Shown here one piece after another: positions 11,935-64,000 of a stretch of DNA of 64,000 nt. The first letter of the stretch is position 1; each line of letters starts with the position of its first letter. Source of the DNA: a bacterium (GTDB taxonomy: Bacteria > Patescibacteriota > Dojkabacteria > SC72 > WJKH01); NCBI GenBank assembly GCA_029547225.1, contig JAKPPS010000040.1, forward strand, positions 42,796-106,795. Reading direction: 5' to 3'. The notes under the pieces were generated by a model. It saw nothing but the letters and a program-made list of their open reading frames with translations. It did no database searches and was not told where the DNA came from. A program made the translations under genes and the position numbers.

Positions 11935-12294
11935 TTACTTAAGAATAAAATCCATAACCAAGCTAAAGATTATCCTTACCATAACAATAAAAAACAACCC
12001 TATTACGGTCCAAGTAATAGTTGAAGATGCTTTTTTAACTTTTTCAGGATCTCCTGCAGAAGATATCCACATGTATCCAGAAAAAATCAACAGTGCAAGA
12101 GCAATAAAAACCGATACAGGTATTAATAAAGATTCTATTTTTGAAATTAATGTAGCAAGAAATGCTCCACTTAACTGTGGAGGATCCTGTACCCCACTAT
12201 TCGCATTAACAGGATTAACGGATATTAAAAATACCTGAAGAACAGATAAAATAAATATTATTATTTTTGAAACATAAGCCTTCAATGTATTCAA
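11935..12294 (-). CDS. TrbC/VirB2-like pilin family protein (paralog 4 of 4)
   Basis: Signal/anchor 'IIIFILSVLQVFLISVNPVNA'. Two C-terminal hydrophobic helices flank 'SSAGDPEKVKKASSTITWTVIGLFFIVMV'. Same architecture as the three upstream paralogs. Confidence 0.5.
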   Translation of the reverse strand: MNTLKAYVSKIIIFILSVLQVFLISVNPVNANSGVQDPPQLSGAFLATLISKIESLLIPVSVFIALALLIFSGYMWISSAGDPEKVKKASSTITWTVIGLFFIVMVRIIFSLVMDFILK

Positions 12295-12307
12295 TTTCCT
12301 TTATTCT

Positions 12308-12676
12308 TTAAATACCAACGATATTTTTAATAACAAAATTGACAATAAGAATTGAGAAGAAACATATTACTAGACCGATAATAGCATAGGTAATACCCTT
12401 TGTTGCACCTTTAATTTTATCCTCATCACCATTTGCCGTAATATATCGAATACCGTTCCATATTAACATTACTACCGCAACTAATGCAGTCAATCCAATA
12501 CCCCAATTAAGGAGATCAATTATAATTACCTGTAAGTCACCCTCAGCACGAGGTCCCTTAACTTTGTTTACCCATGTCTCCCATGTCTCCTGAGCTGAAA
12601 CAGCCATAGTTGAAGAGGCTAAAACAACGGCTGAAGTACTTAATTTTGCGTATAACGACACTAATTTATTTTTCAT
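12308..12676 (-). CDS. TrbC/VirB2-like pilin family protein (paralog 3 of 4)
   Basis: Signal peptide 'LSTSAVVLASSTMAVSAQ', then two C-terminal helices around the conserved block 'ITANGDEDKIKGATKGITYAIIGLVICFFSILIV'. Confidence 0.55.
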   Translation of the reverse strand: MKNKLVSLYAKLSTSAVVLASSTMAVSAQETWETWVNKVKGPRAEGDLQVIIIDLLNWGIGLTALVAVVMLIWNGIRYITANGDEDKIKGATKGITYAIIGLVICFFSILIVNFVIKNIVGI

Positions 12677-12751
12677 TTTTTAATTATTAAAAATTAATAT
12701 AATTTATAATTACTTATTTTACACTAAAAAAACTATAATTTCAATATTATT

Positions 12752-13087
12752 TTAAGCTAAAATTTTTCCCATAATAAATCTAATGATTAGTTGTGATAAA
12801 AAAATAATCACTAAACCAATTATCGCATTAACAATCGTACCTGTACCTTTTTTAATTTTGTCCGCATCACCATTAGCAGTAATATATGTAACGCCTCCCC
12901 AAACAATAAAGGCTAAAGCAACTACTGAAGAGATCACTACTGCCGTAGATAAAAATGAAGCAACCTTAGCCAATATTACATCACCGGAACCCGTCTCAGA
13001 TTGAAGAGAGGATACAACTGGATTATTGACACCAAACCAACCTACTAGACAAGTCGAATATTTAATTGTACTTATTATATTTATCAT
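12752..13087 (-). CDS. TrbC/VirB2-like pilin family protein (paralog 2 of 4)
   Basis: Block 'ITANGDADKIKKGTGTIVNAIIGLVIIFLSQLII' is near-identical to paralog 3. Its start overlaps the upstream paralog by 4 nt. Confidence 0.55.
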   Translation of the reverse strand: MINIISTIKYSTCLVGWFGVNNPVVSSLQSETGSGDVILAKVASFLSTAVVISSVVALAFIVWGGVTYITANGDADKIKKGTGTIVNAIIGLVIIFLSQLIIRFIMGKILA

Positions 13088-13524
13088 GATGATGGATTAT
13101 TAGGATCAAATTGAATATTTAGACCAAGGACTTTATTTATAATAACCAATATTACAATAGAAAGCATGATAATTGCAAATCCAGTAATAGCATTAGTTAT
13201 TATTTCTTTAGATTCCTTAAGCTTATCTGGATCTCCTTTACTCAACATAATCGTAATACCTGCATACACCAGTAAGATTATCGCACATAATACTCCCGCG
13301 GGTATAGCAATAACTATTAACTTGTTTACAAATTCAGTTATTACATCTGTCGGTTGACCACCTTGAGTTGTTGTAGTAGTAGTCGTATTAATAAAATCGT
13401 CCACAGTATCTCCAAAACTAGGCCCGAAAGCATCACTATCTCCATTAGCGATCAGGAAAATAAAAGGAATCTGTATGATTTTTGCAAAAATTAATGATAA
13501 GTTCATAAATACAATATTATACAC
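13084..13524 (-). CDS. TrbC/VirB2-like pilin family protein (paralog 1 of 4) with poly-Thr linker
   Basis: N-terminal hydrophobic segment, 'TTTTTTQGGQ' linker, C-terminal 'LSKGDPDKLKESKEIITNAITGFAIIMLSIVILVII'. Its start codon shares nt 13524 with the helicase stop. Confidence 0.45.
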   Translation of the reverse strand: MYNIVFMNLSLIFAKIIQIPFIFLIANGDSDAFGPSFGDTVDDFINTTTTTTTQGGQPTDVITEFVNKLIVIAIPAGVLCAIILLVYAGITIMLSKGDPDKLKESKEIITNAITGFAIIMLSIVILVIINKVLGLNIQFDPNNPSS

Positions 13525-53580: not shown

Positions 53581-54600
53581 TTATTTCAAACTTTTTCTAT
53601 TTACTTTTTTTAAATTTTTTTCTAAAGATTTAATACTTTCAAGATATGCTTTCTCTACAGGTGACAGTGTTTTTACCTGATACTTTTTGTATTCACTTTC
53701 TGCCTTTTTCAATGCCTGATCATGACTTATACTCCCTGCAGTAAGCAATTTACCTTTGCCATATATTCCTACAAATTTTTCAAGCTCACTTAACCAATCT
53801 CTCATGCTCATCCTTTGTTGCTCTATTGCTTTCAACTCAGCTAAATCGAAAAATGCCGACACAAGTCGATTTAGCCTTTGCAGCTCATCAGAACTTAAGT
53901 AATTCTTAGCAACTTCAATCTCTTTTTTTATTGGAATTGGGCCAGAGAAAGTCGTTAATCCCATAAACTCTTTTTCTGCATCCGCTCTAGAATATATCAG
54001 TTCTGGAGCTGTTTGTTTATTAACTGCATAATGAAGTTTTTTCTGAACAGTCGCAAAGAATTTTCTCGACTCTTTACTATTTGGATCATAATCAACACTT
54101 GTTGCATAGAGATCAAGCACCTGTCTGTACAACACTTTTTCACTACTGCGGATATCACGAATTCTATCCAGTAACTCTTTCCAGTAATTCCCGCCTGCAT
54201 TTCCTTTCAACTTTTCATCATCTATTGTAAATCCTTTGATGATATACTCTGTTAACCTTTGTGTTGCCCACTTACGAAATTCTGTACCCCTAAGTGATTT
54301 TACTCTGTAACCAACTGATATTATTACGTCGAGGTTGTAGTATTCAAGATCACGAGTGACATCCCTACTACCTTCTTTTTGAACTTGGCGGAAATTCCGC
54401 CTGGTTGAATTTACTTCAAGTTCAGATTCTTTATATATATTTTGAATATGCTCACCAATAGTTCTTCGAGCTTTATCAAAGAGTAATGCCATCTGTTCTT
54501 GAGTCAACCAAACAGTTTCGTCTTCTAAAATTACATCAATAGTAATTTTTTCATCACTTGTTCTAAACAGTATGATCTCTGAATTGCTATTTTTATCCAT
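53581..54600 (-). CDS. rhuM: RhuM-family protein (virulence/defence-island associated)
   Basis: N-terminal 'EIILFRTSDEKITIDVILEDETVWLTQEQMALLFDKARRTIGEHIQNIYKESEL' matches the conserved RhuM start. It is flanked by roughly 430-bp non-coding regions on both sides. Confidence 0.65.
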   Translation of the reverse strand: MDKNSNSEIILFRTSDEKITIDVILEDETVWLTQEQMALLFDKARRTIGEHIQNIYKESELEVNSTRRNFRQVQKEGSRDVTRDLEYYNLDVIISVGYRVKSLRGTEFRKWATQRLTEYIIKGFTIDDEKLKGNAGGNYWKELLDRIRDIRSSEKVLYRQVLDLYATSVDYDPNSKESRKFFATVQKKLHYAVNKQTAPELIYSRADAEKEFMGLTTFSGPIPIKKEIEVAKNYLSSDELQRLNRLVSAFFDLAELKAIEQQRMSMRDWLSELEKFVGIYGKGKLLTAGSISHDQALKKAESEYKKYQVKTLSPVEKAYLESIKSLEKNLKKVNRKSLK

Positions 54601-55035: not shown

Positions 55036-56283
55036 TTATGAATTCGCTTTTTTTAACTGTTCTTGCTTGACACTCAATATACTTCCCAAGACTACAAGCA
55101 AAATGATCACATAATATGTTATACCTGCAAATGGTAGCAACATTATTATTGAACTAAATAACTGACCGGCTAATAATGATATTACCAAGCTTTTGTTTGC
55201 TATTGATGGTTTGTTCAATGCTTTACTAGTTAATCCTAATAAGACTTGTCCTATTGCGATATTAAAGAATATTAGATTTACACTTATAACTAGAATCGCA
55301 ATTATGAAAGCTACATTTAATATTGGTGCGAATAATTGACCAATTGGGAAATTTATAATCAAGCCTAAAAATGATAATCCAATTAATATTGTTGATCCAA
55401 ACACACACACTGCCATCACCAATACGCCTTTTCCTAAAGATAAACCGAAATTATCCCAGCTTCCGTTAATATTCTTTACTATCGAATACGTTTTAACAGG
55501 GAAAAATTTGATTATCAAGTAGCCCAATGCAAAAGTACCTACGAATTTGAATACAAACGATGCAATTGCTATCATTATATTCTCAAAAGAATATTTATTA
55601 GCTATTGTTATTTGCTCTTCATTTTGTTCTGAGGAGATTTCCTCGCGTAAGAAAGCAAACCTACTGTCAAGTAGTTCACCTTTTGTATCAGTGCCAAGAT
55701 TTATTATTTTTGTTCCTGTAATTTTTTCCTGATTAATACTTCCAAATTGTGCACCCAATAATAGGTCTCCACCTATCTCCGAATCGATGCTTACTGTATT
55801 TGATGCAATCCGCAAATCTTCACCAATAATACCAGCTATCTCAGAATCATATGTAGCAACAAATGCGCTCTCTTCAACCTCAGCTTTTGATATTGCTCTC
55901 TGACCAGCTATAAAAATGTCTCTACCTACAGTACCATCAATATTTATTATATTTCCAGCACAATAAATAGACTTATCTGTATTTCCAGTAAATGTAATTG
56001 TATTCCCGAAAATTATTACGTTGCCTGATATCTCTCCTGTTACATTGACCGTATTCCCGAATATTATCAAATCTCCATTAATTCTTCCATCAACATTTAC
56101 ATTTTCTCCTGAATTTTCTGAAGGTATTATATATACATCATCATTGACGATTTCATCAGCAGATACTGTTGTATTGTCTCTACGCAATTCTAGTGCATAC
56201 GAATTTGTTGGGTTTGATAGGGATAATACTGATAACATTGACAAGGCAATTATTGATATACCTAGTATCTCTTTTATTTTCAT
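55036..56283 (-). CDS. Secreted/membrane protein with bactofilin-like beta-helical repeats and C-terminal polytopic TM domain
   Basis: Signal peptide 'ISIIALSMLSVLSLSNPTNSYA'. Repeats 'GDLIIFGNTVNVTGEISGNVIIFGNTITFTGNTDKSIYCAGNIINIDGTVGRDIFIAGQ' fit the bactofilin/polymer-forming cytoskeletal pattern. About 6 C-terminal TM helices. Confidence 0.45.
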   Translation of the reverse strand: MKIKEILGISIIALSMLSVLSLSNPTNSYALELRRDNTTVSADEIVNDDVYIIPSENSGENVNVDGRINGDLIIFGNTVNVTGEISGNVIIFGNTITFTGNTDKSIYCAGNIINIDGTVGRDIFIAGQRAISKAEVEESAFVATYDSEIAGIIGEDLRIASNTVSIDSEIGGDLLLGAQFGSINQEKITGTKIINLGTDTKGELLDSRFAFLREEISSEQNEEQITIANKYSFENIMIAIASFVFKFVGTFALGYLIIKFFPVKTYSIVKNINGSWDNFGLSLGKGVLVMAVCVFGSTILIGLSFLGLIINFPIGQLFAPILNVAFIIAILVISVNLIFFNIAIGQVLLGLTSKALNKPSIANKSLVISLLAGQLFSSIIMLLPFAGITYYVIILLVVLGSILSVKQEQLKKANS

Positions 56284-56485: not shown

Positions 56486-57931
56486 CTATTTCTTGCCGAA
56501 GAAATCTATTGCAACCCGTAATTCTGGATGAGTTTTCGAATACTCCTCTATTGATACTTTTTGTTGCCATGCTTCACATGCTTGTACCAAAGCTTTTGCT
56601 CCGCTTCGAGTACCCTGTGGATGACTATGAACTCCAGCCCCCATTGTTGTTATAAAGTCAACATCCTGCATAGCATCTATAAATGGTGCGAGCAAAACCG
56701 GATTTAAACCTCCTGAGATTATTGGACATGTTTTCTTCATTTTTCTCCAATCCTGAATAAAGTGCTTTGATCTTACTGAATCGAGAAGATGGTAATTAAC
56801 TTTGTTTTGAGCTTTTTTCTCTTTTTCGATCCAATCCTTATCGATGAAACGATTTACAAAAAGTTCACGACTCACATCATCATCCTTCTCATTTACTTTA
56901 TACCAACTTTGCTCAAAAAAATGTCCGTCACTTTCAATATCAAGTGCCAATTTCGCAGCAACAATATCTTCACCTACAGATCCAGACATTTTACCTATGC
57001 CTGCTGTTCCAGTATGGATACCAGATGCGCCAGCTAATCGAGCTAGTTTTGTCAAAACAGGAACTGTCATACCGAATGGATTTTCAAGCCTTGTAAATGC
57101 ACCATGTCCTGCTCTATGAAAATGTAAAAATACTTCTGGGTATCTTCTACGAATTGTTTGAACAGCTGTCCAGCCAGCAGTTATGCCATCGACCAAAAAA
57201 GCATAACTTCCCGGTTTCATCGTTTTCTTAACTAACTCAGCTCTCTCAATCATTTGATCGAAATCTGCCGCAGAAACATTAAAAGAATGAACCTTTGTCT
57301 GTCCAGTTACTTTTTCTGCTTCATCCATAGCTTGTCTTACATACTTGACCATAGATTCATAATCGCAGAAATCCTGATTTGCTTGAGGTTCATCATTCTT
57401 CACAAAAGCACCTCCACCCGACCAAAAGTCAAAGCATACTTCAGCATACTCAGATGATGTTAATCCAATTTTTGGTTTAATAATAGTACCTAAAATTGGG
57501 ATATCATATAAATCCAAATATTGACGCATATTATCGATAGTGTATGAAGGACCGTCATATTGATCTAGCATAGAAGATGGAAACCAAACATCAAGAAGTT
57601 TACATGCTGAAAGATTCCCCATACCCAAAATATTTCCATTGATGTAGGTTATGATGTTTTGTACATTTCCTCCTCTATCAAATATTCTCCAAGGGAATGC
57701 AATCCATACTAGTTTTTTCTCTCGATCAATATTATAAACTATTGCATTTAATGAGTCAGAGAATCTTGTAGATGTACCAATATTTATATTTGATCCTGTA
57801 GAAGATTCTGCAGCTATCTCAGATGCGGCATCAAGCAGCTCATCACGATAAGTATCTACATGAAAGACAGCCAACATATATTGGTCATTAAATACTTCAT
57901 TTGTACCGAGTTTGATATATTTAGTTTGCAT
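56486..57931 (-). CDS. rbcL: Ribulose-1,5-bisphosphate carboxylase/oxygenase large subunit, archaeal-type (form III or II/III)
   Basis: 'AAESSTG', 'IIKPKIGLTSSEYAEVCFDFWSGGGAFVKNDE' (KPK plus carbamyl-Lys KxDE), 'HFHRAGHGAFTR', 'GIHTGTAGIGKMSGS', 'ISGGLNPV...TTMGAGVHSHPQG', 'SIEEYSKTHPELRVAIDFFG'. It aligns along its length with T. kodakarensis RbcL except for one roughly 40-aa insert. There is no small subunit gene nearby. Confidence 0.88.
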   Translation of the reverse strand: MQTKYIKLGTNEVFNDQYMLAVFHVDTYRDELLDAASEIAAESSTGSNINIGTSTRFSDSLNAIVYNIDREKKLVWIAFPWRIFDRGGNVQNIITYINGNILGMGNLSACKLLDVWFPSSMLDQYDGPSYTIDNMRQYLDLYDIPILGTIIKPKIGLTSSEYAEVCFDFWSGGGAFVKNDEPQANQDFCDYESMVKYVRQAMDEAEKVTGQTKVHSFNVSAADFDQMIERAELVKKTMKPGSYAFLVDGITAGWTAVQTIRRRYPEVFLHFHRAGHGAFTRLENPFGMTVPVLTKLARLAGASGIHTGTAGIGKMSGSVGEDIVAAKLALDIESDGHFFEQSWYKVNEKDDDVSRELFVNRFIDKDWIEKEKKAQNKVNYHLLDSVRSKHFIQDWRKMKKTCPIISGGLNPVLLAPFIDAMQDVDFITTMGAGVHSHPQGTRSGAKALVQACEAWQQKVSIEEYSKTHPELRVAIDFFGKK

Positions 57932-58023
57932 AATAGGCAGTTGTTCAATTTATTATTTGATAATATCATTTTAGAATAAATTTTTCTACTCTGAAATTTC
58001 AGTGATTTATTTCATATCCTCAA

Positions 58024-58047
58024 TATGTACCATATATGGTACATATA
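58024..58047. promoter_or_regulatory. 24-bp perfect palindrome ATATGTACCATATATGGTACATAT in the divergent rbcL / M14-peptidase intergenic region; candidate operator
   Basis: I read it directly at 58024-58047. It is self-complementary over all 24 nt, 118 bp upstream of rbcL (minus strand) and about 50 bp upstream of the plus-strand gene. Confidence 0.3.
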
Positions 58048-58096
58048 AGCTTATGAATAAAACTATGATATAATTTCTAAATTTTATCTGATAAAA

Positions 58097-59713
58097 ATGA
58101 AAATGAAGAAATTTGCATTAATACTTTTAATTATTTTTTCAACGTTAGCACTTGGAGCTGTTATTGCATACTTTTTTTTCTCAAACAATTATCGAAATAC
58201 AAAGAGCATCACAGTAGATTTTGGTCAAAACGCTTGTATAGAAGAAGATTATTTTTTACCAAATTTATTAAATTTTGTCGAAGCAAGACAGATTCCAGCT
58301 TATGATAATTCAGAGATATCTGAAGAAAATGCCAATGAAACTCAGAATGGCGAAAATGAAAATATCAATAACGATAATATTGTGTGGAAGATAGATAGAG
58401 AGAATTTTGGATTTAAAAATAGCAAAATATGTTTTTCCCCTAATAGCAAGCTAAAACCTGAGACACAATATTATCTGAAGTACCAATGGCTATTTCAAGA
58501 TTTTGAAATAATTATCAATGTAAAAGATATTGAGCATATTATTAACTACGATTCATTTGAGGACTCAAATGGAGAAAGTCTCACTTTTCGTTCAGACACA
58601 GAAAATATGGATTACGAAAGTACCATCCTTATCAACAATGAAAAAATTACTAATCAATGCACCCAACAAAATGAGATTACAGAATGTAAGATAAAAAGTG
58701 AAGAAGTAAAAAATTTGCTTAGGTCATATTCATCAGAAGAAAACACCACAATAAAAATTGAAATAAGAGGTACATACAAAGAGGAAATCGAAATAGAAAT
58801 TCTATCAGGTTTGGCAAGATATCAAGGAGAAAAATACTTAGGCTTTATAGATTTTAACAATGGATATGGCGTTGATAAAAGTGGCCAAGCCATGATACTT
58901 GGCTATACAGAAAAGAATGTCCCAATCCATGGATATATAATTAACAGAAGCATCTGCGAAAATATTATCAACAATGGCGGTTCAGATAGTAAAAATAATC
59001 TTGCTGATTCAAAAGAAAATTTTGATGAGAGCATTAATAATACTTTTTTTTACTTTGGTGCAATCCATGGAAACGAAGCAAATACGGCTCATCTAGTTGA
59101 TAAATGGAAGAGTGATTTAATACAGCATTGCAACTCAATTCCGCAAAATACAAATATAATTATTTTGCCTTCTATAAATCCAGATGGTGTTGCAATTAAT
59201 AACAGATTTAATAGCAATTCAGTCGATCTCAATCGTAACTTCGATACGAAGGATTGGCAACAGATTACTTACTTAACAGATGGTAAAACATTTCTAAACG
59301 GCGGAGGTAACCATCCTTTTTCTGAAAAGGAAACACAATTAATTCGAGATATTATCTTGCTTACTAGACCAGAATTAACTATATCTTTTCATTCATGGGG
59401 AAGAGTTATTGTGCCAGCAGATATAAATAATTCTTACACATACGCCAATTATTACTCTGATTATTCGGGCTACTATGTCGAGGATATCACTGCAAGTGCT
59501 GAGGACAGTTCATTTAATTATGTTACAACAGGATCATTTAATGTGTGGATGGCAAGCAATAAATTATCTGCGCTAACTATAGAACTTTGGGATTTAGAAA
59601 ATGATGACTGGGGTCGAAACCGACTTGCTTTATGGGATACGATTTCTGATATTAACAAACTTTCTTTTCTAAATGACGATATAAAGAAGCATCAAGATAA
59701 AAACGCACAATAA
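58097..59713 (+). CDS. Membrane-anchored M14-family zinc carboxypeptidase-like protein
   Basis: N-terminal TM 'FALILLIIFSTLALGAVIAYFFF'. 'FYFGAIHGNEANTAH' is the HxxE zinc motif. 'PSINPDGVAINNRFNSNSVDLNRNF' is the M14 'N.DG..R.N..GVDLNRNF' motif. 'SFHSWG' may provide the second His. Confidence 0.65.
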   Translation: MKMKKFALILLIIFSTLALGAVIAYFFFSNNYRNTKSITVDFGQNACIEEDYFLPNLLNFVEARQIPAYDNSEISEENANETQNGENENINNDNIVWKIDRENFGFKNSKICFSPNSKLKPETQYYLKYQWLFQDFEIIINVKDIEHIINYDSFEDSNGESLTFRSDTENMDYESTILINNEKITNQCTQQNEITECKIKSEEVKNLLRSYSSEENTTIKIEIRGTYKEEIEIEILSGLARYQGEKYLGFIDFNNGYGVDKSGQAMILGYTEKNVPIHGYIINRSICENIINNGGSDSKNNLADSKENFDESINNTFFYFGAIHGNEANTAHLVDKWKSDLIQHCNSIPQNTNIIILPSINPDGVAINNRFNSNSVDLNRNFDTKDWQQITYLTDGKTFLNGGGNHPFSEKETQLIRDIILLTRPELTISFHSWGRVIVPADINNSYTYANYYSDYSGYYVEDITASAEDSSFNYVTTGSFNVWMASNKLSALTIELWDLENDDWGRNRLALWDTISDINKLSFLNDDIKKHQDKNAQ

Positions 59714-62510: not shown

Positions 62511-64000
62511 ATGGAACCAAAGCGCCCCGATTTGCTATACAAATCTATTATTGTCGTTTTGTGTTTATTGTCAATTGGTTTTTCGATTTATTTATATATA
62601 ACACTTCGTAAAATCAGTCCAATAATACAAGCTTCAAGAAGTTCAATACAAGATACTCTTTCTTCAATACAAATTCAGGATAGCTCTGGCAATTACACAA
62701 TTATTTCTCCCAAGGTCGTAATAAATGATATTGTTTCTGCACTTAAAAATGATCCTGCCTTTATTAATTCAATAGCTGGTTTACAAGGTGAGAAGGGTGA
62801 GAAGGGCGACACAGGAGAAACAGGCGCGACAGGTGCACAGGGATTGCAAGGCATACAAGGAGAAAAAGGCCAAGACGGATCCTCTACAGGTATACCAGGT
62901 CCTGCTGGTGCAGATGGTCTTGATGGAGTTGATGGATCGGATGGACTCAGTGCTTACGATATTGCCGTTGCTGAAGGCTATTCGGGTACTGTTGCTGAAT
63001 GGTTAGCTTCATTAATCGGACCACAAGGACCTGCAGGCGCTGATGGTATAAATGGAACTAATGGTCTTGATGGAATAGATGGATCGGATGGACTCAGTGC
63101 TTACGATATTGCCGTTGCTGAAGGCTATTCGGGTACTGTTGCTGAATGGTTAGCTTCATTAATCGGACCACAAGGACCTCAGGGGCTACAAGGTTTGCAG
63201 GGATTACAGGGAATTCAGGGAGAAGTTGGTCCTCAAGGGATTCAAGGTGAAACCGGACTACAAGGGCCCGCAGGTGCTGATGGTATTAACGGAGTTGATG
63301 GGTCAGATGGTCTTAGTGCATATGAAGTGGCTGTCGCACAGGGATATTCGGGTACTGTTGCTGAATGGTTAGCTTCATTGATAGGTCCACAAGGACCTCA
63401 GGGGCTACAAGGATTACAGGGAATTCAGGGAGAAGTTGGTCCTCAAGGCATACAGGGTGAAACAGGTGCTACTGGCCCTCAAGGACCACAGGGCGAACAG
63501 GGTTTACAAGGATTACAAGGAATACAGGGTGAAACCGGACTACAAGGGCCCGCAGGTGCTGATGGTATTAACGGAGTTGATGGGTCAGATGGTCTTAGTG
63601 CATATGAAGTGGCTGTCGCACAGGGATATTCGGGTACTGTTACTGACTGGTTAGCTTCGTTAATCGGTCCACAAGGACCTCAGGGAGAGCAAGGATTACA
63701 AGGAATACAGGGTGAAACTGGTGCTACCGGTCCAGCAGGTGATCCACTTGGCGGGTTGACTGATCCGGGTGCCGATAGAATTATGTTTTGGGATGAAAGC
63801 GCGAATGCTCCAGTCTGGTTATCATTAGGAGGTAATCTTGCAATAACAGAGACAACTTTAGATGCAATAATACCTGCCGATAGTTATGTTACTGGAGTTG
63901 CTTTTACCGGTACAAGCACAAAAACTTTAACAGTAACAAGAAGTAACAGCTTACCAGATCTGACTGCAACATTTGATGATATTGGTTTTGCAAATCCAAT
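62511..64000 (+). CDS. Membrane-anchored collagen-like (Gly-X-Y) repeat protein with phage-tail-fibre-type 'GSDGLSAY(D/E)(I/V)AVA(E/Q)GYSGTV(A/T)(E/D)WLASLIGPQGP' interruptions; 3' end beyond the window
   Basis: I translated it by hand from the ATG at 62511 (frame 0). The frame stays open to the window end, and it is absent from the ORF track because no stop lies inside the window. N-terminal TM 'SIIVVLCLLSIGFSIYLYI', then 'GLQGEKGEKGDTGETGATGAQGLQGIQGEKGQDG...' and four collagen/interruption modules, then a non-collagenous C-terminal region ('..LTDPGADRIMFWDES..'). Confidence 0.8.
   Translation, partial: MEPKRPDLLYKSIIVVLCLLSIGFSIYLYITLRKISPIIQASRSSIQDTLSSIQIQDSSGNYTIISPKVVINDIVSALKNDPAFINSIAGLQGEKGEKGDTGETGATGAQGLQGIQGEKGQDGSSTGIPGPAGADGLDGVDGSDGLSAYDIAVAEGYSGTVAEWLASLIGPQGPAGADGINGTNGLDGIDGSDGLSAYDIAVAEGYSGTVAEWLASLIGPQGPQGLQGLQGLQGIQGEVGPQGIQGETGLQGPAGADGINGVDGSDGLSAYEVAVAQGYSGTVAEWLASLIGPQGPQGLQGLQGIQGEVGPQGIQGETGATGPQGPQGEQGLQGLQGIQGETGLQGPAGADGINGVDGSDGLSAYEVAVAQGYSGTVTDWLASLIGPQGPQGEQGLQGIQGETGATGPAGDPLGGLTDPGADRIMFWDESANAPVWLSLGGNLAITETTLDAIIPADSYVTGVAFTGTSTKTLTVTRSNSLPDLTATFDDIGFANP
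62916..63683 (+). repeat. Nested near-perfect tandem DNA repeats inside the collagen-like gene (modules of ~147 bp, ~219 bp and ~282 bp)
   Basis: 62916-63032 is nearly identical to 63063-63179, with a 147-bp period. The block starting at 63177 ('cctcaggggctacaagg...') recurs at 63396. 63246-63360 recurs at 63528-63643. I compared these by eye. Confidence 0.8.

Follow-up and report, generated by a model that had tools for sequence, protein, structure and literature searches.

Form II/III RuBisCO large subunits are described from the Candidate Phyla Radiation (CPR) as well as DPANN (Wrighton 2012/2016, Jaffe 2019), and within Dojkabacteria the closed genome WS6-1 codes for a form II/III enzyme with an insertion of 48 amino acids (aa) (Wrighton et al. 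2016, PMC5113843). A two-gene adenosine monophosphate (AMP) pathway was proposed for WS6/Dojkabacteria in the same work, in which the ribulose-1,5-bisphosphate carboxylase activity of the PER enzyme was examined by assay or complementation (PMC5113843). Close co-location of AMP-pathway genes is mainly a trait of form III-c enzymes (Jaffe et al., PMC6389311). Among described regulatory sites, TrpR-family operators are 20-bp palindromes of the type TGTAc...gTACA (consensus TGTAcTnGTnnACnAgTACA) with lineage-specific arms, and the genes are often autoregulated; HisR/YerC operators are likewise palindromes of 20 bp, again lineage-specific (Ashniev et al. 2022, PMC9413887). Here we describe a 64,000-nucleotide stretch of contig JAKPPS010000040.1 from Candidatus Dojkabacteria (Patescibacteria/CPR), hereafter the window, in which a RuBisCO gene (rbcL) and a divergent metallopeptidase gene are separated by a 165-bp gap (57932-58096) containing a perfect 24-bp palindrome. 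The elements of this control region are as follows.

56486-57931, minus strand: rbcL, form II/III RuBisCO large subunit, 481 aa (NCBI HQG57765.1).
57960-57988, minus strand: candidate rbcL core promoter from a consensus scan, TAGAAA-17 nt-TATTAT with a TG extension.
58023-58046, no strand: 24-bp perfect palindrome ATATGTACCATATATGGTACATAT, a candidate operator that a dimeric helix-turn-helix (HTH) repressor would bind.
58057-58074, plus strand: candidate peptidase promoter read from the sequence, block ATAAAACTATGATATAAT, with a perfect extended -10 element, TGATATAAT, at 58066-58074.
58097-59713, plus strand: M14 (MpaA/DUF2817-like) metallopeptidase, 538 aa, with an N-terminal membrane anchor (NCBI HQG57766.1).

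Most likely, a dimeric HTH repressor encoded off this contig uses the palindrome as its operator. This role is plausible because its 18-bp core recurs exactly in operator-like positions elsewhere, including in CPR genomes. The explanation as a whole, in which an intact form II/III RuBisCO serves an AMP pathway and the candidate operator lies between two promoters, has in our estimate a probability of about 0.6. The first-pass annotation of this DNA had proposed a binding site for a dimeric regulator of rbcL or of the peptidase gene; the recurrence of the core keeps the binding site plausible, but control of rbcL specifically is unsupported.

The palindrome is perfect and 24 bp long, as first reported, although it lies at 58023-58046 rather than one base further on, at 58024-58047. 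No other perfect palindrome in the window is as long, the runner-up having 16 bp. Only 5 of 300 simulated windows (order-2 Markov; ∼1.7%) contain palindromes of at least 24 bp, and on length alone the element is thus unusual, but not overwhelmingly so. Palindromes of at least 12 bp are present at the expected number under the same model (34 observed, 35 expected), and the 12-bp example near the rbcL promoter is probably a chance occurrence. The 24-bp palindrome is itself enclosed in a longer, imperfect repeat.

57991-58002, no strand: palindrome of 12 bp, CTGAAATTTCAG, immediately upstream of the rbcL -35 element and not conserved in a sister species (locus L154).
58006-58062, no strand: extended imperfect inverted repeat TTTATTTCATA ... 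TATGAATAAAA, 57 bp, enclosing the 24-bp palindrome.

The 57-nt extended repeat folds as DNA at -11.3 kcal/mol (z = -3.8) and has a z score of -4.2 as RNA. No terminator, riboswitch, or known RNA family was found in the intergenic region, which also lacks a T-tract; BLAST of the region against plasmids returned AT-rich noise only, and literature searches for the palindrome sequence itself gave no match. Readings as a dif site, a replication origin, or a restriction site were dropped, as the strand and skew changes track gene orientation and no matching motifs were seen. A resemblance to the NrdR box was also dropped, since the centre alone matched and an nrd context is absent.

Comparison with the sister species shows which parts of the control region are retained. 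The divergent gene pair is present in L154, with 92% identity between the RuBisCO proteins and 58% between the peptidases. Over the ∼58 bp that precede the rbcL start codon, including the predicted promoter, the two species are ∼84% identical, although synonymous sites are near saturation, and the 18-mer ATAAAACTATGATATAAT is identical and lies upstream of the orthologous peptidase gene; rbcL and the M14 peptidase gene thus each appear to have their own conserved core promoter. Within the intergenic region (window 57932-58096 and L154:3859-4137), the DNA between the promoter blocks is unrelated in the two species (∼67 bp here and ∼150 bp in L154), and the L154 spacer contains neither the 24-bp palindrome nor CTGAAATTTCAG. 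No similar palindrome was found upstream of rbcL in relatives with 60 to 74% identity (L009-L019); one match in L009, to TGAAATTTCA, is the start of the divergent yjbQ gene. By this comparison of sequences the palindrome is lineage-specific and is placed between two conserved predicted promoters. On the other side of rbcL, a RhuM-family gene is absent in L154 and the adjacent gene for a 415-aa membrane protein is inverted there (window 53581-54600 and 55036-56283, both minus strand), indicative of a local rearrangement beside rbcL.

The position of the palindrome relative to the two promoters suggests which gene it would control. With transcription starts taken ∼7 nt downstream of each -10 element, the palindrome would have its centre close to -46 in the peptidase promoter and close to -81 in the rbcL promoter, extending from about -58 to -35 of the former and from about -93 to -70 of the latter. 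It adjoins the peptidase promoter at the -35 position, and the conserved block of the rbcL promoter stops ∼35 bp short of it. Because of these positions, a bound protein would be expected to act mainly on the peptidase: repressor occupancy would chiefly block the peptidase promoter, with any effect on rbcL being at most secondary, and the M14 peptidase gene is the more likely target of the two.

The 18-bp core of the palindrome, TGTACCATATATGGTACA, was found at 120 or more loci in a scan of metagenome contigs, and many of these are toxin-antitoxin operons. A Gp49/HigB-family toxin gene lies 0 to 11 nt downstream of the core in 87 of the 120 loci listed, an XRE-type antitoxin gene is present in 79, and both genes are present in 76; the core is typically located between a TTGACA (-35) hexamer and the toxin start codon, 5 to 11 nt away, and the antitoxin gene follows the toxin gene (e.g., L064:1827-2492 and L021:10858-11623). 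In one toxin-antitoxin subfamily (family 1), changes in the bases next to the core occur on both sides, such that a palindrome of ∼30 bp is retained (flank pairs ACATGT/ACATGT, ACATGG/CCATGT, ACAGGT/ACCTGT, and ACGTAT/ATACGT). Locus L135 has two copies of the core 39 bp apart, beside a small Cro/C1-type HTH gene. About 20 further matches among those listed are inside coding regions and look like chance occurrences; matches in viral contigs are mostly coding or unrelated. The operators of HigB(Gp49)-HigA(XRE) systems thus share an identical 18-bp core with our locus, but there it is directly upstream of the toxin gene, whereas here it is between RuBisCO and peptidase genes and the window contains neither a Gp49 toxin gene nor a matching XRE gene. 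We also note that an IS110-family transposase gene on a contig of 31% G+C has the 18-mer, or a copy of it with one mismatch, ∼165 bp upstream (L056:100-117), and that the 18-mer or such a copy is present as a pair beside an IS1595-like transposase gene (L051:14-152); the 18-mer may be an insertion target or a part of such IS110/IS1595-like elements.

A second group of occurrences is associated with Trp_repressor-family genes of the CPR. Locus L020 (2266-2919) has four copies of the core, with two on either side of a Trp_repressor-family gene of 142 aa, and is a CPR contig (Parcubacteria) as judged by the names of the homologs of that protein (Parcubacteria, Paceibacterota, Kaiserbacteria, and Adlerbacteria). 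Palindromes that have an ATATAT centre but other arms stand on either side of the orthologous gene in three more CPR lineages (TGTCCC-ATATAT-GGGACA, AGTTCA-ATATAT-TGAACT, and TTATG-ATATAT-CATAA). The further CPR Trp_repressor loci are these.

L155:2966-3465: CPR Trp_repressor locus.
L158:2813-3505: CPR Trp_repressor locus.
L161:2455-2949: CPR Trp_repressor locus (Adlerbacteria).
L163:151-172: CPR Trp_repressor locus.

Across the four Patescibacteria lineages, these genes (∼140 aa) have perfect or near-perfect palindromes both upstream and just past the stop codon, and ATATAT-centred palindromes number 12 in ∼1.6 kb of gene flanks versus 7 in ∼215 kb of other CPR loci. The HTH recognition helix varies in parallel with the palindrome arms between lineages. 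The proteins pass the Pfam PF01371 model but fall under the TrpR and YerC/YecD equivalog cut-offs, and they make up a branch specific to the CPR, in which a C-terminal YPLHFLLFPWPK tail is conserved. Compared with the described TrpR-family operators, the palindrome reported here is similarly perfect, is located in a promoter region, and has TGTAC...GTACA ends, which match the published consensus; it differs in its span between the outer bases, of 18 bp against 20 bp, and in its ATATAT centre, which is unlike that of TrpR. A CPR contig has copies of the same 18-mer around a Trp_repressor-family gene, and the arms are lineage-specific, as they are for HisR. ATATAT-centred palindromes associated with CPR TrpR-like genes were not found described in the literature searches made. 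The best candidates for the binding protein are a TrpR/YerC-like protein or an XRE/antitoxin-like protein, and the palindrome is described here as a candidate operator with putative binder families. That it belongs to an undescribed ATATAT-centred operator class of a Patescibacteria-specific TrpR/YerC branch, recruited between RuBisCO and a murein-peptide-amidase-like peptidase, is a tentative and rather unlikely extension.

Several observations weigh against an operator at this locus and against the wider explanation. Neither the sister species nor any of seven more distant relatives has the palindrome, which is therefore not an ancestral control element. A check for other copies, as the first-pass annotation had suggested, found no second one in the 64 kb with two to three mismatches allowed, and extra copies or half-sites in the window and in related Dojkabacteria loci occur at chance-level counts without enrichment. 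No gene for a TrpR/YerC-like protein, an XRE antitoxin, or a Gp49 toxin is present in the window or in the Dojkabacteria loci examined. A closer relative (L153) retains the divergent pair, with 480 of 481 RuBisCO residues identical, 93% peptidase identity, and an identical spacer, but the spacer identity is uninformative because it falls in a ∼700-bp difference-free block inside a mosaic 95%-identical alignment. One flanking palindrome of the Adlerbacteria locus L161 is located between genes that converge, a place in which a promoter would not be expected, and a structural or looping role fits that site as well as a simple operator does. The AMP-pathway role is also assigned by analogy only, and neither partner gene is seen in ∼71 kb.

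The main alternative is that the palindrome has no regulatory role and is a mobile-element scar, the relic of a lost toxin-antitoxin promoter, or an AT-rich chance product. It would account for the sister species having kept both genes and both promoters yet having no palindrome, and for a single copy whose cognate regulator is absent on 75 kb; the frequency of equally long palindromes in simulated windows, the presence of the 18-mer beside IS110-family and IS1595-like transposase genes, and the local rearrangement at the locus all point the same way. We nonetheless regard it as doubtful, as an exact 18-bp match to operator-like sites in unrelated genomes is hard to credit to chance, the site is precisely between two promoters, and no transposase or toxin-antitoxin remnant is detectable nearby.

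Control of rbcL as the main function, tying RuBisCO expression to a metabolic signal, is improbable and is the least supported of the regulatory readings. The palindrome is indeed located upstream of rbcL, in a control region that the two divergent genes share, and a distal site at about -80 could work through activation or looping; however, the conserved rbcL promoter block ends well before it, the same promoter stands in the sister species with no palindrome next to it, and seven other Dojkabacteria-type rbcL loci lack a similar element. Less probable still is a structural action, in which the element would form a cruciform in DNA, or a hairpin in the RNA of a long 5' leader, and would influence transcription, mRNA stability, or recombination. 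The predicted 57-nt hairpin, the preservation of a ∼30-bp palindrome through two-sided flank changes in toxin-antitoxin family 1, and the L161 palindrome between convergent genes are in keeping with such a role, but the low folding energy is trivial given that the palindrome is perfect, there is neither a T-tract nor a match to a known RNA family, and the best promoter candidates are downstream of the palindrome on both strands, such that it would not be transcribed. An operator for an HTH repressor acting mainly at the peptidase promoter is the reading that we prefer.

The rbcL gene codes for an intact form II/III RuBisCO of Candidatus Dojkabacteria, and its sequence indicates a functional large subunit. 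The product contains the RuBisCO_large_N (PF02788, 75 bits) and RuBisCO_large (PF00016, 307 bits) Pfam domains and passes the NCBIfam model NF010002 (561 bits, cut-off 489); its scores with the form III and form I NCBIfam models are under their cut-offs. The best matches among solved structures are M. burtonii 5MAC (676 bits), 9DYP (668 bits), and 8VGS from Candidatus Methanofastidiosum (667 bits), with weaker scores for form II (∼310 bits), form III (T. kodakarensis type; ∼205 bits), and form I (∼170 bits) structures. An AlphaFold 2 model, made with an alignment of 62 homologs, has a mean predicted local distance difference test score (pLDDT) of 84 and a predicted template modelling score (pTM) of 0.86. 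Its top Foldseek matches are 9DYR, 5MAC, and 8VGS (TM score, 0.89 to 0.95; identity, 61 to 63%), followed by form II structures at 34 to 36% identity. The M. burtonii and Methanofastidiosum form II/III enzymes are thus alike to the rbcL product over their full length, with the same fold and a complete set of catalytic residues, and by both scores and identity the product groups with M. burtonii-type enzymes and not with forms I, II, III, or IV. The CPR/DPANN form II/III enzymes cited above are also its kin.

All of the catalytic motifs listed in the first-pass annotation were found in the translation: KPK (152-154), K-N-D-E (178-181), HRA (272-274), HTGT..GK (306-314), SGG (406-408), and GAG (431-433), with E42 and N100 also in place. 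The carboxylase active-site set is complete (K152, K154, K178, D180, E181, H272, R273, H306, K314, S406, G408, and G431/G433, corresponding to K175, K177, K201, D203, E204, H294, R295, H327, K334, S379, G381, and G403/404 in spinach numbering), and most of these residues are invariant across the 62-sequence alignment. Relative to the L154 ortholog, the ratio of nonsynonymous to synonymous substitution rates (dN/dS) is ∼0.02, with synonymous sites near saturation, consistent with strong purifying selection on rbcL. Weak matches to the MtnW and OiaX models, of the kind that any superfamily member gives, are the sole support for the possibility that the product does not carboxylate, whether as a form IV RuBisCO-like protein or as some other member of the superfamily. 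We consider it effectively refuted by the sequence, since every catalytic residue is in place, the RuBisCO-like protein models score 84 to 138 bits against cut-offs of 409 to 700, and the closest solved structures are active carboxylases. Outside of its own 90% cluster, the nearest database relatives of the protein are 68 to 74% identical.

The enzyme differs from the canonical form II/III structures in the size of an insertion ahead of the SGG loop.

56747-56902, minus strand: coding region of the 52-aa insertion, residues 344-395, comprising the 29-aa form II/III insert plus ∼23 aa.

Between W343 and W395 the protein has 52 aa more than form II enzymes and 23 aa more than enzymes with the canonical 29-aa M. 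burtonii insert, and it therefore belongs to the insert-bearing form II/III subgroup, which has at least 29 aa at this site. The first-pass annotation had correctly noted an insertion, although its size of roughly 40 aa was imprecise. The insertion site, between the FFEQxW strand and the SGG loop, is shared with M. burtonii and Methanofastidiosum, but the insert here closes with a second FFxQxW motif, and its extra part is of low confidence in the structural model (over residues 350-395). Among 115 measurable homologs, the insert is 29 aa in 78 and 42 to 57 aa in the other 37, which are the closest relatives, and inserts of at least 50 aa terminate in the second FFxQxW motif (KHFIQDW here; homologs P0002-P0024). 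Form II chains align to two places in the rbcL product, 336-343 (GHFFEQSW) and 388-395 (SKHFIQDW). This second motif copy suggests that the enlarged insertion arose by partial tandem duplication. By its published description, the WS6-1 enzyme is of the same phylum and form and has an enlarged insertion at the same site, of 48 aa rather than 52 aa. Should the larger insertion affect assembly, as the M. burtonii insert of 29 aa does, it could interest RuBisCO structural biologists; conceptually, however, this RuBisCO is nothing new, being one more Dojkabacteria form II/III enzyme of a class described in 2016, with the protein already deposited.

By analogy with characterised relatives, and in line with the pathway proposed for WS6/Dojkabacteria, the enzyme most likely carboxylates ribulose-1,5-bisphosphate derived from nucleotides through AMP phosphorylase and ribose-1,5-bisphosphate isomerase, the genes for which would be sited elsewhere in the genome. 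The absence of both genes next to rbcL, as first noted, is borne out over a much larger region: no IF-2B (ribose-1,5-bisphosphate isomerase) or Glycos_transf_3 (AMP phosphorylase) gene was found in the window plus ∼7 kb of the contig (∼71 kb), using the precomputed annotation and a scan of suitably sized unannotated open reading frames. The same partner genes are absent near rbcL in seven loci of relatives with 60 to 74% identity, which share no synteny with the window. Given that tight clustering is mainly a form III-c feature (PMC6389311), this is expected, and the missing neighbours are usual for form II/III enzymes and not noteworthy.

The divergent peptidase matches the M14 zinc-carboxypeptidase family (PF00246, 64.9 bits), with a weak match to the MpaA model NF007897, and the exact sequences of both it and rbcL are deposited at NCBI under "MAG TPA: Candidatus Dojkabacteria bacterium." The contig (∼75 kb) is present in several metagenomes and carries CPR-type type IV secretion system (T4SS) pilin genes, RelA/SpoT, RecG, and SerRS genes, and a large polysaccharide-synthesis cluster. 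Three small T4SS_pilin (PF18895) genes, typical of Patescibacteria, are arranged in tandem (window 11935-13524, minus strand) beside a 1069-aa gene matching UvrD-helicase and PD-(D/E)XK nuclease families. A collagen triple-helix repeat protein gene (PF01391, 87 bits; window 62511-64000, plus strand) runs past the window end and accounts for the rise in G+C content to 41% there; it is probably also the reason that most assemblies break at this point.

The earlier observation of this locus is thus largely correct and the biology is ordinary. To our knowledge, gene regulation in Patescibacteria is almost unstudied, and the palindrome is a more useful lead than the RuBisCO, as it is a defined site of 18 to 24 bp with two concrete candidate binder families. 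If it is an operator of the TrpR/YerC branch, then nucleoside and/or peptide salvage would be controlled by a small-molecule-sensing repressor, in an organism for which hardly any regulation is known. Although of modest interest overall, the palindrome offers a testable entry point into the gene regulation of Patescibacteria.

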